This document shows, one piece after another, positions 138-21,402 of a stretch of 45,440 nt of DNA. The position numbers and the translations under genes were made by a program. The notes beneath the pieces were generated by a model, which saw only the letters and a list, made by a program, of their open reading frames with translations, had not been told where the DNA came from and ran no database searches. The stretch is from Octopus sinensis (lineage: Eukaryota): assembly GCF_006345805.1 (NCBI RefSeq), contig NW_021834884.1, forward strand, positions 1 to 45,440. Direction: 5' to 3'. The stretch's first letter is position 1. Every line of letters begins with the position of its first letter.

Positions 138-1160
138 TAGTTTCAGCTGAGAGCTGTGGCCATGCTGGGGCAGCACCCTTTTGCTACACTGTTATTACTT
201 AGAGCCTCCTCTGAATTGTGGCACCTGGTTAAGAATGGTTTGATATCGCGACCCTCATTCGCATCTCTTGCCGTGAGGTAGGTACATCTGGGATTGTACA
301 CAAGAAGAGATCCAGTTTTGATTTGAGAACACCTACATCTACTTTGTGCAGGTTCTTCAGACTCTTTGGGAGAATATTAAAAAGGTGTGGGCCCTTGAAA
401 CCAAGGCTGTTGCAGTAACTGGTCCTGAAGCGCGTTGGCGTTGCTGGGATCTTTGGCACTATGCAGTGTCGTCCCGTTCTGGCATAGGTGTAGCTTTCAA
501 TGCCAAAGTTTTTGGCACAATTCCTTCCGGGACCTTCCAGATATATATTACTGCATACCTCTCCCGCCTTCTCTCTAGGGAGTAGAGTCTTAGCTCTTTC
601 AGCCTTTCCCGGTGGCTGAGCAGTTGCAAAGAGACGATTTTCTTTGTGAATCTTCTCTGGTCCGCTGTTAATTTCACACAATTAGGTGACCATAGCTGTG
701 TGCAGCAATCCAGGCGGCTGAGGACGAATGTCCTACAGAGGACCATCATGGTTTCCTCATCTCTGGTTCTGAAAGTTCTCAGCATCCATCTAGCCATTCG
801 TCTGCACTTTGTCGCCATCCTGGTAATGTGCACTTGGAAAGAAGTATCATCACTCACGTCGATACCCAGGTCCCTCATTGACTTAGGCTCTGCGATTGAA
901 ATTCCCTTTGGACCAGTGTACCCTCTAAGTTTCATATTCAGTTTTGGACGCTGGTAGCGCAGGGCTTGGAAGTTTTCAGCATCAAACTGCATATTATTAT
1001 CCTCAGCCTATCTGTAAATTGAGTCCAACTCCTGCTGCAGATATGCAACATCGTTGGGGTTCTGTATTTTCTGCGAAACTTTCGTATCGTCTACGTAGCT
1101 CGCAAGGGTAACTATCCGGGCACTTGAGGGCATATCTGAGAGGGCTACTATAAAAAGCAG
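138..1160 (-). mobile_element. 5'-truncated, frameshifted CR1-group LINE (RT C-terminal half plus 3' tail)
   Basis: The minus strand reads LLFIVALSDMPSS..ASYVDDTKV (RT catalytic motif near 1080-1100). The ORFs 459..992 and 229..681 contain RDLG, LSRLD..QLWSP and LERRRERY. The element ends in the tail GGTGCTGCCCCAGCATGGCCACAGCTCTCAGCTGAAACTA. Confidence 0.9.
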
Positions 1161-5430: not shown

Positions 5431-6426
5431 CTTGTCTTATGATAAAAGGCAGATTTTCTCTGCCTCCCAGATAGTTTGTTTTTAATACAATTGTACAATA
5501 TAGAATTTCTTCAATTGGAATTTACCTATGATTTTTCGAAGTAGATTCAATTGGGTCATGGCATATAAATTTTTTTCAATTTGACCCACAATTAAGCAAA
5601 AATTCCGAGAAAACTAAATATTTTACGATTTGCCTCTCTAATTTCAACTGCTTCACTACCTCTATTACCACAATTTCTCCTACTTTCACTTTGCAAGTGT
5701 ACCTTCAACCACTATTTAAAAAAATACACAGGAAACAGAAACAAATAAATACATAACGATTTACTCCTCACACAATTTCTTCAATTGGAATTTACTTATG
5801 ATTTTTCGAAGTACATTCTATTGGGTTATGGCATATAAATTTCTTTCAATTTGACCCCCAATTAAGCAAAAATTAGAGAAAACTCAATATTTTACGATTT
5901 CTCTCTCTCATTTCAAATGCTTTACTCCTTGCAAACGTATACATATATGACAGTGACAAACACAAACGTTTCAAACAACGACATACAAACACTCAAACAC
6001 ACACACACACGTGTGTGTTTGTTATTAGTAAAAAAGGCGCCAAACACAATTCACTTTCTCATTCGAACACATTTGCAGACACACACCAACAATTCACTAA
6101 CATATGGTGAGTAGATGCTAGCCGCTCACATTATGAGTTACACTATTACACCAATTGTACTGGGACTGTTGTCTACTTCCCGTTAGTTTTTAGTGTCGAG
6201 GAAACAAAACTTTCTCCAGAAAGAACAAAAAAAAAAAACACTCCTAGATTTCACAAAGGACTTTAAGAAACGATAGGAAGTAAGTTCAGTTGAAGAAAAG
6301 ACACGGACTTTAGGAAATCAGACGCTCGAATTACCATGATAACTCAACAGAAAAGGTACATTGGTTTTTAATTTACTTTCTATCGCTAAGTTTTCGTAGT
6401 ATTAATTTGCGAGCGTACTTCAGCTA
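5430..6426 (+). mobile_element. Possible old non-autonomous Helitron with an internal ~270-bp-period duplication
   Basis: Starts A|TC..ATAAAAG after a TA tract. A diverged direct repeat spans 5504-5652 and 5774-5921. A possible decayed hairpin and CTA(T) end lies near 6394-6427, so the 3' end is uncertain. Confidence 0.4.
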
Positions 6427-9932: not shown

Positions 9933-10697
9933 GGATGGTGAGCTGGCAGAATCGTTAGCACGCCAGACGAAATGCTTAACGGCATTTCGTCTGCCATTGC
10001 GTTCTGAGTTCAAATTCCGCCAAGGTCGACTTTGCCTTTCATCCTTTCGGGGTCGATAAATTAAGTACCAGTTAAGCACTGGGGTCGATGTAATCGACTT
10101 AATCCGTTTGTCTGTCCTTGTTTGTCTCCTCTGTGTTTGGCCCCTTGTGGGTAATAAAGAAATAGGCATTCCGTCTGCCGTTACGTTCTGAGTTCAAATT
10201 CTGCCGAGTCGATTTTGCATTTCATCCTTTCGGAGTCGATTAAGTAAGTACCAGTTACGCACTGAGGTCGATGTAATCGACTTAATCCGTTTGTCTGTCC
10301 TTGTTTGTCCTCTCTGTGTTTAGCCCCTTGTGGGTAGTAAAGAAATATATTATTACCACGCCGGGCGAAATGCGTAGCCGTATTTCGTCTGCCGTTACGT
10401 TCTGAGTTCAAATTCTGCCGAGGTCGACTTTGCCTTTCATCCTTTCGGGGTCGATAAATAAAGTACCAGTTACGCACTGGGGTCGATATAATCGACTTAA
10501 TCCGTTTGTCTGTCCTTGTTTGTCCTCTCTGTTTAGCCCCTTGTGGGTAGTAAAAAAATAGACATTTCGTCTTCCGTTACGTTCTGAGGTCAAATTCTGC
10601 CGAGGTCGACTTTGCCTTTCGGGATCGATTAAATAAGTACCAGTTAGGCACTAGGGTCAATGTAATCGACTTAATCCCTTTATCTGTCCTTGTTTGT
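9933..10697 (+). mobile_element. Head-to-tail array of four SINE family B units (~185-210 bp period)
   Basis: The block TTTCGTCTGCCGTTACGTTCTGAGTTCAAATT..GTCGACTTTGCCTTTCATCC..AGTACCAGTT..GTCGATGTAATCGAC occurs four times. Only the first unit has the complete head. Confidence 0.9.
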
Positions 10698-11027
10698 CAT
10701 CCGCTTCTCTCGTCCCTGTCTTTCAGATTCCAGAGGCAGGACGAGGTCAATATCACTAGAAATAGGTCGGGATGAAGCGGATGGCCACATTGACAATCGT
10801 GTCTCACTGTACCCTGTCCACTCTACACAAAGCTTGCCGGTCCACCTTCCCGTTCGACCGCAGTCCGCGGAGTCCAGTCTTCACATGCATAGGTAGACAA
10901 GCCCCTATATAAATTGACAGAATGAGAGGAAAAATTCAAGGCTGTAAATAGTTCTCTTCTTTATAAATGTTCTGAAAACTATTTACAGCCTTAGCATTTT
11001 ATTTCATTTTGTCAATATATATATATA

Positions 11028-15856: not shown

Positions 15857-17948
15857 ATATACTCAGGATGACGGAGAGGTAAAAATCTGATTATGTAATA
15901 TTGGGTTACATACGGAAGACAACCCATCATCTTACTCATCATCCTTCAAATATTTATCTGGAAGTGAACAATACACGACGCTACACGTTCCTCACGCACA
16001 CACACACACTCACACAAACATAGTTTCGTATGCTCTCACGCATATACACATACATACATGCGTTCATACGCACACACCTGGATTCGTAAGTGCTTATTTG
16101 TGAGATGGTGCACGAGTGTATATAGGGTATCTGTGTATGTATGTTTGTGAGCGTGTATGTGAGTGTGGTGTGTGTGTGTGTGTGTGTGTGTGTGAGTAGT
16201 GCGCATGTGTATATAAAAAGTCTAGGTGCTTTTGGGTTACAGTGGTATATGCATTATAGCAGGCATTTAGGACACACGCAAACGTACATATATCTACATA
16301 TGTACATATATACATATATAAGTATAATATATGTGTGTGTATATAACATGTATATATATTACATTGTATATATATATATATAGAGAGAGGAGAGAGAGAG
16401 AGTGAGGGAGACAGAGAGAGATAGACAGATAGGTAAAGTATATATATAATATATATATATATATAGTATTATATATATATGTATATTATATATATACACA
16501 TATACATACATATATATTGTAAAATATATATATGTATCTATATGTATATATATATGTGTATATATATATATACATACATAGACACACACACACATATATG
16601 GGGAGAGAGAACGACAGAGGTAGGGAGGAGAAAATGAGAGACATTAAGTGCCCTCAAGGGGTATCTAAATGTATTTCCGAGCATGTTTGGAATATTACCC
16701 CCCACACCAACGCGAACACATACACACAACAATGCAATTATGTGTGTATATATACATATATGTATATATATATATAAATATATGTATGTGCATACGTGTA
16801 AATACATACACCCTACATATATATAAGTAAATACATACATACGTAAACATGCACATACGTATGTATGTACATACACACACAAACACACATATAGATATAG
16901 TTTTCTAGGATTAGAACGCTTCGCCTTTTATATTCTGAGAGAGTGATATAGTCGGTTGCGACGTCGGTGGTGTTGATGATGTTAGAGATGATATCGATGA
17001 TGGTGTAATTGGTTATAGCCATAGCTGTAGTAGTGATTGTGGTGGTGGTGGTGGTGGTGGTGGTGGTAGTGTTACTAATATGCATAGATTCAAATTATCG
17101 ATTAGTTTATAATTAATTAAGTGTTTTGCAATCAACCGATAAGTTTATAAGTTAAGAAATGGTAGTTAAGTTATCGACTAGTATTGACGAGTATATGGTA
17201 TTTTCTCTGGCTTCCTGCGTTGTTGGTTCAAATCCCATCGAGGTCAACATTGCCTTTATTTTCTCCTGGGTTGATATACAAAGTACCAGTCATGAATGTG
17301 GACTGGTATACATTGTCAAACGAGATGTCATTGCAGTGTTTGCTCCATCGCTTTATGTTCTGAGTTCAAATCCCACCAAAGCTTACTTGGGTGTTGGACA
17401 TAATCCAATACCCAGATTAATATCCTCACTCATTACCTTAGGTACTCCTTGCAGAGTTTCTGATCTGAGGTTACAGTCCTCTCTTCCTCTCACCTGTCTC
17501 GGGGGCCCCGAGGAAGTTTGTGGACATTTTCTTTCCCTCCTCACAAGCGCATATCGATTCTACGAATTCACACTCATGTCTGCTGTCTTCTATTCTTTTC
17601 TTTTATTTATTTCGGCTAGCAGACTGTGGTCATACTGGGGCACCGTCTTGAAGAACTTTAGTCGAATGGATCGACCCCAGCACTTATTTTCTTTAAAGCC
17701 GGTCTCTTTTGCCGGACCACTAAGTTACGGGGACGTAACAACACAAATACCGGTTGTCAAGCTGTGGTAAGGAACAATACAGACACTCATACCCACACAT
17801 GCACTCAACATACGCACACGCATATATATATATATATTAATATTATATATATATATATATATTATATATATAGATCATACATATTATATACACATATGTA
17901 TATATATAAATATAATAAATAGTAAATAATATATATATATATATATAT

Positions 17949-17983
<35 letters not shown>

Positions 17984-17986
<3 letters not shown>

Positions 17987-18487
17987 GTATTCCTAGCACA
18001 TATTTCGCCTTAATGTACTGATATATGAAACATATATGGCTTGTGTTAGTAAACCAGCGATTATAATTATTTTTATTTTATCGCAATTTGATTTGTTTAC
18101 ATATTTCTCGATAAATTATGAGCGCCAGGCGATATACCAGAATTCCCTAGTGTTGTCGGGACGTTCGGAGTCTGCGCAGTGATATGATTAGTTAGGGAGA
18201 GTAAATCATTAGACGCACATGCTTCTAGTGAGTTAGGATCCCAGAAAAACAGGGTCTCACTGAAGAATTCTCCCGGGGAAATAATTATCTTTATTGTGAA
18301 AAGAAAGAAACTGCGTCTGAGAATTACCGGTTTAGTAAATGTTTTTATCTTCATTTCACTTAATTTATCAAGCTTCTGTATTCCTAGCACATATTTCGCC
18401 TTAATGTACTGATATATGAAAAATATATGGCTTGTGTTAGTAATACCAGCGATTATAATTAGTTTTTATTTTATCGCAATTTGATTT

Positions 18488-18492
<5 letters not shown>
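17984..18492 (+). mobile_element. Retrozyme-like element: 391-bp monomer with ~116-bp terminal direct repeat, in (TA)n
   Basis: Near-identical direct repeats at 17984-18099 and 18375-18492. TA tracts on both flanks. One HHR lies between the repeats. No credible ORF. Confidence 0.8.
18255..18322 (+). ncRNA. Type I hammerhead ribozyme with an extended stem/loop II
   Basis: UCUCA CUGAAGA [aUUCU...AGAAa] GAAA CUGCG UC UGAGA. Perfect 5-bp stem I, intact core, GUC cleavage triplet. Confidence 0.75.
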
Positions 18493-18527
<35 letters not shown>

Positions 18528-21004: not shown

Positions 21005-21402
21005 ATCCTTTCTACTAGAAGCACAAGGTTTCAAATTTGAGGGAAGGGATTAAGTCTATTACATCGACCCCAGTGCGTCACTGGTACTTATTTAATCGAC
21101 CCCGAAAGAATGAAAGCCAAAGTCGACCTCGGTGGAATTTCAACTCAGAACTAACGGCAGACAGAATACCTATTTCTTTATTGCCCACAAGGGGTTAAAC
21201 ATAGAGGAGACAAACAAGGACAGACAAAGGGATTAAGTCGATTACATCAACACCAGTGCGTAACTGGTACTTAATTTATCGGCCCCAAAAGGATGAAAAG
21301 CAAAGTCGACCTCGGCGGAATTTGAACTCAGAACGTAACGGTAGACGAAATACCGCTAAGCATTTCGCCCGGCGTGCTAACGATTCTGCCAGCTCGCCGC
21401 CT
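21005..21402 (-). mobile_element. Dimeric SINE family B element
   Basis: Head GGCGGCGAGCTGGCAGAATCG at 21402, then two body units joined near 21168, then the CCTTGTGC tail. Confidence 0.85.

Follow-up and report, generated by a model that had tools for sequence, protein, structure and literature searches.

A hammerhead motif lies between the direct repeats of a 509-nt insertion

The window analyzed in this work (the whole stretch of DNA, 45,440 nt in length) contains on its plus strand a 509-nt insertion at positions 17984–18492, which corresponds to 1.30 copies of a non-coding 391-nt unit with a GC content of 35.5%. Its ends are formed by direct repeats, A and A′, which start 391 nt apart and flank a 275-nt middle region, B. 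When compared by BLAST, A and A′ are 96.7% identical over 123 columns (E = 7e-53); within the repeat they differ by one substitution and two 1-nt indels, three changes in all, and a fourth difference lies at the TA boundary. A first-pass annotation of this DNA had described near-identical terminal repeats of ~116 bp with a 391-nt period, a single hammerhead motif (HHR) between these repeats rather than within them, TA tracts on both sides, and a predicted cut after C18317. All of these are present at the coordinates given below, and the core of a putative type I HHR can be read directly at the predicted cut.

17822..17983, no strand: left AT-rich or (TA)n target tract (sequence)
17984..18492, plus strand: whole insertion, 1.30 units of the 391-nt unit (sequence, repeat alignment)
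17984..18099, plus strand: 5′ partial copy A, 116 nt, a pseudo-LTR (repeat alignment; read as a 5′-truncated end of reverse transcription)
18098..18104, plus strand: TA-like patch TACATAT at the unit position where copies stop (sequence; candidate role in priming)
18255..18322, plus strand: type I hammerhead (own descriptor, direct reading)
18275..18314, plus strand: five differences from the family in helix II and loop 3 (contig comparison)
18375..18492, plus strand: 3′ repeat copy A′, 118 nt, stopping at the recurring family 3′ end (repeat alignment, contigs)
18493..18522, no strand: right (TA)n target tract (sequence)

The element occurs as a single copy within the window, and a target-site duplication is indistinguishable inside the flanking (TA)n microsatellite. 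The TACATAT patch matches the (TA)n target at six of seven letters and may represent a priming microhomology. The sole frame of at least 90 amino acids in the unit (122 amino acids, minus strand) has no Pfam match and was taken as spurious. An open reading frame for reverse transcriptase (RT) and GIY-YIG, as expected of an autonomous Penelope-like element (PLE), is absent from the 391-nt unit.

Near-identical terminal repeats that flank a short middle could also belong to a small LTR- or TRIM-type element with two fixed LTRs. However, the insertion lacks TG...CA ends, and inspection by eye finds neither a TGG-starting primer site after A nor a purine tract before A′. The features of an LTR retrozyme or TRIM (two LTRs, each with a type III HHR, plus PBS, PPT, and a 4-bp TSD) were not found; the unit is non-coding and has no LTR, PBS, or PPT (the last two judged by eye), and its HHR is of type I and lies outside the repeats.

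The HHR core consists of helix I (18255–59 paired with 18318–22, five Watson-Crick pairs), CUGAAGA (18260–66), GAAA (18307–10), and a 2-bp helix III. The helix II region is long (18267–18306), with an unpaired A on each side of its base. When the unit was shuffled 5000 times with its dinucleotide composition kept, a strict descriptor of this motif matched none of the shuffles; it matched one of 100 shuffled windows. In Rfam, a hammerhead was matched neither at the gathering score nor when the E threshold was raised to 10, which yielded 20 matches. The assignment of one type I HHR per unit is that of our own descriptor.

Copies of the unit recur in other sequencing runs

The family to which the insertion belongs is present in 20 of the 24 listed runs, which come from 10 studies and 8 organisms (A–H); 15 of the runs hold at least half of its 31-mer words, and three of the holder runs contain only 5–6 million letters. 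The copy at 17984–18492 has eight private differences from the family, and these leave 326 of its 479 31-mers untouched (0.68). The best share of words in any run is 0.66, close to the value expected if only these eight differences were missing, and, these differences aside, the family is therefore almost identical across organisms A, B, and C.

Contigs from four of the 20 holder runs (X2, X4, X11, and X13, with 1091, 566, 14, and 1 records, respectively) were aligned to one unit, 18042–18432, which spans both repeat ends. Among the listed contigs, the junction from A to B is spanned by X2 records 9–14, X4 records 17–18, X11 record 1, and X13 record 8, and the junction from B to A by X4 records 21–24, X11 records 4 and 6, and X13 record 8. 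The share of contigs that continue into unlike sequence is 0 in X2, X4, and X13 and 0.18 in X11. Because both junctions recur and this share is 0 in three of the runs, the closed 391-nt unit is the form of the family and not a local duplication, within the power that short contigs allow.

These results bear on two outcomes that the first-pass annotation had named as evidence against its own proposal. One, a single-copy local tandem duplication, is not what we see, since the family is found in eight organisms with both junctions. Together with the HHR type and the ends of the copies described below, this spread largely refutes both a local duplication and an LTR- or TRIM-type element, and we consider this pair of explanations very improbable. 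Against the other, that the element is the terminus of a long coding PLE (this locus being then a chance partial tandem), stand the recurring junctions and the unlike share of 0 in the three DNA-type runs; the contigs are short, which limits the power of this test. HHRs of similar type sit in PLE termini (PMC4209133, PMC8557442), and one X11 contig exits the unit, but we regard this origin as quite improbable. The claim that the unit has the size of known metazoan retrozymes held: the unit is retrozyme-sized, bears an HHR, and has many copies.

The X11 contig in question leaves the unit behind 18344 and continues for 108 unlike letters. Further diverged relatives were seen in X11 record 3, at an X2 loose end behind 18105, and in X4 record 19, and in one of them the HHR region is replaced by 146 unlike letters; all of these may be subfamilies or a link to a longer parent. 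X13 record 8 reads B-A-B in a single contig, and it was rejected as proof of multimers, as its depth is 4.6 and it may reflect graph collapse. Two exact-motif scans of metagenome contigs gave 0 matches.

X11 is only guessed to be RNA, and its 14 contigs were not counted as evidence of expression; none of the holder runs is listed as recorded RNA. In studies P5, P8, and P10, some of the guessed-RNA runs hold about half of the words and others of the same study next to none, an unevenness that could reflect tissue-dependent expression or DNA carry-over.

The hammerhead of the family differs from that of this copy

Six of the eight private differences are 1-nt indels, and five of the eight (one substitution and four missing letters) cluster in 18275–18314 (P = 0.006). 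An A behind 18314, absent from this copy, was found in all four runs (49610 of a depth of 49610 in X2 and 9066 of 22907 in X4). With the family letters, loop 3 is palindromic and its self-duplex has an energy of −12.5 kcal/mol, compared with −3.3 kcal/mol in this copy, where the palindrome is one letter short and broken. Helix II is also longer with the family letters (−5.9 versus −2.9 kcal/mol). The free minimum-energy fold of the copy does not form the ribozyme, and a fold constrained to the HHR is 5.6 kcal/mol worse. As assembled, the copy is probably a poor cutter. The bias toward indels suggests assembly error, whereas the perfect 94-nt and 27-nt repeats of a second element in the window (see below) argue against a general error rate this high; real decay and assembly error are both possible sources of the private differences.

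The G10.1-C11.1 pair is absent from the HHR, with A at both 18267 and 18306 and no other letter listed there in the four runs. The base of helix II may be read as A·A, or as U-A after an extra A, and the helix is in two parts with an internal loop. In diverged relatives, core position 7 varies (A, C, or U), one relative has a U4C change, and matching changes in both arms of helix I occur in separate contigs. These variations and the palindromic loop 3 are marks of PLE-type hammerheads that act as dimers (PMC4209133). As judged from these letters, the family HHR most likely cuts only as a dimer, in which case transcripts that have a single HHR or fold slowly would stay uncut and usable as templates.

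When the unit was folded as a circle, the plus strand was 61% paired and no more stable than 60 shuffles (z = −0.7 for this copy, and z = −1.0 for the family letters, with a minor letter at 18205 included). This minor letter lies outside the HHR and makes up 13% of the depth in X2 and X4. The corresponding value for the minus strand was z = −2.4 against 60 shuffles. In the family-letter circle the pair probability of helix I is ~0.01, and the ribozyme is therefore not predicted by this model to fold in a monomer circle.

Copies stop at a recurring 3′ end on (TA)n

Copies of the family end behind 18104, where they run into (AT)n, in 21 X4 contigs with full agreement and in one X11 contig. This recurring 3′ end is the same place in the unit as the 3′ end of the 17984–18492 copy. 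Among the 18 loose-end entries listed (47 more exist), no other 3′ end on (AT)n was found, and the six from X2 show no (AT)n end; nor does any listed loose end fall at the 5′ start of our copy (18375 in the unit). The one other 5′ start is that of X11 record 3, a single diverged contig, near 18104 after an AT-rich flank. No pile-up of contig ends on the unit was tabulated, and no loose end lies at 18318 among those listed. These data describe a partial tandem with a fixed 3′ end and unfixed 5′ ends, the 5′ half of this description being weaker than the 3′ half. The proposal that the ends of copies are circularly permuted does not agree with a 3′ end that recurs at one place on (AT)n, and the lack of a recurring 5′ end among those listed also argues against two fixed LTRs.

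Between the predicted cut and the 3′ end there are 175 nt; the extra copy measures 116–118 nt. The HHR falls between the repeats because the cut is farther from the 3′ end than the extra copy reaches, as results from 5′ truncation; any copy of 1.0–1.44 units would have its one HHR between repeats without the need for a circle. The position of the HHR, which had been taken as a sign of a circular template, therefore loses that meaning. The broader claim, that a structure longer than one unit reflects reverse transcription around a circle or along a tandem transcript, fares better in one respect, as reverse transcription past the cut site is needed, and worse in another, as partial tandems in (TA)n are ordinary for PLEs.

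A further reading of the ends is that the RT, having copied 175 nt, arrives at the cut 5′ end of a monomer and switches to the 3′ terminus of a monomer, which would yield 0.45-, 1.45-, and 2.45-mers and truncations of these. The summed depth of contigs is higher on the downstream side of the HHR than upstream, by factors of 1.85 (X2), 1.85 (X4), and 2.6 (X11), and it changes within the segment containing the cut site, which is a weak hint in this direction. However, such depth cannot be read as a copy number, divergence around 18210–18265 inflates the X4 ratio, and the private differences of our copy blank the critical depth bins. Neither a listed loose end at 18318 nor a tabulated pile-up accompanies this change, and we hold jumping to be improbable.

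Other hammerhead elements in the window have a similar layout

A relaxed descriptor found three type I HHRs in the window, at 18260 (plus), 31830 (minus), and 42094 (plus), compared with 0.035 per shuffle (7 of 200 shuffles with one). These and other repeats of the window are listed here.

31487..32166, minus strand: second HHR element, a 562-nt unit as a 1.17-mer, with 94-nt repeats 100% identical and (TA)n on both sides
~41907..42233: third HHR (42094, plus strand), with palindromic helix III and predicted cut at 42129, in a TA-flanked inverted-repeat block
5504..5926: direct repeat of 154 nt, 91% identity, period 270, with (TA)n to the left and no HHR by relaxed scans
9937..10701, 21044..21398, and 36493..36687: dispersed repeat with internal ~185-nt tandem units (sequence comparison)
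34745..35206 and 40209..40538: broken mariner/Tc1 transposase pieces (Pfam PF01359, PF01498)
229..1007, 26118..27099, and 35289..36371: frames resembling LINE remnants by eye (three scanned, no Pfam match)

In the second element the HHR (31830, with a cut predicted at 31781) lies between the repeats and has a helix III of 4 bp, with one unpaired A flanking helix II on each side. At its 5′ end this element has a 27-nt inverted piece (32140–32166), and five letters of its 3′ junction resemble TA; the element looks younger than the insertion at 17984–18492. The block that holds the third HHR is related to 33401–34009, of which 33552–34009 is a long inverted repeat in which no HHR was found. Outside self-matches and AT-rich bits, the three HHR elements show no similarity to one another. 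Since two neighboring HHR elements are PLE-like in layout, such a layout is ordinary in this genome. A hammerhead form whose helix II is long and in two parts, flanked by an unpaired A on either side, occurs in two unrelated elements of the window and may be a lineage-specific variant.

The direct repeat at 5504–5926 is possibly an older partial tandem, and the dispersed repeat with ~185-nt tandem units is presumably SINE-like. No tRNA gene was found in the window, and none of the eight window frames scanned for an autonomous partner matched RT or GIY-YIG.

Discussion

Based on these results, we propose, with a probability of about three in four, that 17984–18492 belongs to a non-autonomous PLE family of retrozyme size with many copies, of which it is a dispersed member with some changes. 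The family is built of a closed 391-nt unit and is present in many copies; its 3′ end recurs on (TA)n, with an HHR 175 nt upstream of that end. In the mechanism that we envisage, an autonomous PLE that targets (TA)n would supply the RT-endonuclease that nicks a TA microsatellite, and reverse transcription would start from a fixed position within the RNA, at which the TA-like patch may pair with the primer. The RT would pass the HHR site and one whole unit and drop off 116 nt into the next unit, which would leave the pseudo-LTR, and uncut transcripts, either with a single HHR or slow to fold, would serve as templates. Hydra-clade or Neptune PLEs are candidate helpers, with Neptune an equal candidate; Neptune PLEs have a microsatellite bias (PMC8557442). 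Naiads also target (TA)n and are described as long inactive in cephalopods. A 23-letter motif of the family is absent from the supplement of PMC8557442, where line wraps could hide it.

Because the RT crossed the cut site, the template must have been a circle, an uncut multimer, or monomers joined by a template jump, and because a cut template read once yields only 175 nt, the 509-nt copy excludes a cut monomer that was read once. Given that the element is a PLE derivative, we put the odds for an uncut multimer at about even, consider a circle possible but doubtful, and think a jumped monomer unlikely.

In the first case, a source locus of at least 1.3 units would be transcribed, its dimer-dependent HHR would stay uncut, and the RNA would be copied with 5′ truncation. 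A 1.3–1.44-mer has one HHR, and motifs with a 2-bp helix III cut poorly as monomers (PMC4209133, PMC7229834). In addition, HHR mutants left insertion in vitro unchanged (PMC11167929), and non-autonomous PLEs with pseudo-LTRs and head-to-tail copies have been described without circles (PMC8557442). On the other hand, this model requires source arrays or another way to regain length, and an HHR that is intact in the family across organisms suggests that cutting matters. Taken over all readings of the locus, uncut multi-unit RNA is our tentative choice of template, somewhat short of even odds, and it fits the data as well as a circle or better.

In the second case, monomers cut by the HHR would be ligated into a circle of ~395 nt, and a PLE RT would run 1.3 times round it from a fixed site. 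As required, the RT crossed the cut site. All three differences between A and A′ are private to this copy, and the similar rate of private differences in the repeats (three in 234 nt) and the middle (five in 275 nt) fits repeats that were identical at insertion, as the 94-nt repeats of the second element still are; identical repeats are, however, also expected from a homogeneous tandem source. Mussel retrozymes of 350–390 nt have been seen as circles (PMC7229834), and the B-A-B contig of X13 is what such a template might give, although this contig, at a depth of 4.6, may reflect graph collapse. Against a circle stand a plus-strand circular fold that is not unusually stable, the loss of the HHR palindrome in this copy, and the finding that the anole PLE mainly used uncleaved RNA as substrate (PMC11167929). 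We consider a circular template rather unlikely. Its fullest form, in which the family would be young, numerous, and almost identical between several related animal species and would be copied off a covalent ~395-nt RNA circle by a (TA)n-targeting PLE enzyme that starts at the TA-like patch paired with the nicked microsatellite, is unlikely.

Both the element class and the circle hypothesis are already in print (PMC4209133, PMC7229834), and the 391-nt family is a new example, which may already carry a name in a repeat library. Our search found no published paper on such an HHR family in cephalopods; the supplement of PMC7229834, which lay outside that search, may list cephalopod elements. The words ribozyme, hammerhead, and retrozyme do not occur in the main text of a 2026 paper on Octopus vulgaris repeats (PMC13282606).

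For the PLE template, the literature holds both a proposal of circles (PMC4209133) and the use of uncleaved RNA in vitro (PMC11167929). The family, abundant and little diverged, with a fixed start of reverse transcription and a cut site lying 175 nt upstream of it, is of value as test material. Patterns of 5′ ends separate the models: a circle predicts smooth decay past one unit, an uncut multimer a ceiling set by source loci, and jumping peaks at the cut site. If the circle reading were true, the template could be read directly from where copies end on the 5′ side and from the variants within each insertion, which would test the proposal of ribozyme-made circles.

Comparison with known elements

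The element is retrozyme-like in its size, GC content, HHR, lack of coding capacity, and copy number, with one HHR at this locus. Metazoan non-LTR retrozymes are likewise 150–450 bp long with a GC content under 50%, non-coding, and provided with one type I HHR per unit (PMC7229834); at 391 nt and 0.355 the family falls within these ranges, and it is similar in size to the mussel units of 350–390 bp. Axolotl HHR_Amex2 likewise combines a 2-bp helix III with a tetraloop and has a mismatch at the helix II base (PMC7229834). In contrast to metazoan retrozymes, the insertion is a dispersed 1.3-mer with one HHR, its helix II region is 40–43 nt long, and its 3′ end is fixed on (TA)n; its predicted plus-strand circle is no more stable than shuffles. 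Circles as templates for PLE copies longer than one unit were proposed in 2014 (Cervera & de la Pena, PMC4209133), and circle-templated reverse transcription by PLE machinery was later proposed for metazoan retrozymes (Cervera & de la Pena 2020, PMC7229834).

Typical of PLEs are copies in partial tandem or truncated at the 5′ end, 5′ pieces in inverted orientation, and insertion into (TA)n (PMC8557442). The pseudo-LTR partial tandem, 5′ truncation, and recurring 3′ end of the family are shared with non-autonomous PLE derivatives (Craig et al. 2021, PMC8557442), and its (TA)n target is that of PLE-type insertion. Shared as well are a microsatellite target in which no target-site duplication can be discerned and the dispersal of retrozyme monomers over chromosomes (PMC8557442; 10.64898/2026.07.22.740005). 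A derivation of retrozymes from the pseudo-LTRs of PLEs has been argued for Xenopus by Li et al. (2026, 10.64898/2026.07.22.740005), who count an element as active when it has two HHR units, whereas the present locus has one. For the anole PLE in vitro, reverse transcription starts internally at fixed sites and uncleaved RNA is the main template (PMC11167929).

With PLE-type hammerheads (PMC4209133), the family HHR shares a helix I of 4–5 bp, a long helix II, an unpaired letter after A9, and a small palindromic helix III. Such hammerheads act as dimers, a property that the palindromic loop 3 suggests for the family HHR as well; this loop is palindromic in the family and not in the 17984–18492 copy. 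The family HHR differs from them in lacking G10.1-C11.1 and in its two-part helix II with an internal loop. Many Hydra-clade HHRs likewise lack G10.1-C11.1 (PMC8557442 File S2).

Hydra-clade PLEs insert into (TA)n and have the HHR close to the 3′ end, a self-complementary helix III, and often one extra letter on each side of helix II (PMC8557442 Files S1–S2), all of which are seen in the 391-nt family. Unlike it, they are coding elements of 2–2.7 kb (PMC8557442). The HHR motif window starts ~100–210 nt from the end in the complete Hydra-clade entries compared and ~260 nt from the end here, and Penelope-18_HMa has its HHR near the 5′ end (PMC8557442). Inspection by eye reveals no sequence similarity between the family HHR and the HHR listed for Hydra-1_oBim (PMC8557442). 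Copies of Hydra-1_Obim "terminate at same site", as do those of the 391-nt family (PMC8557442).
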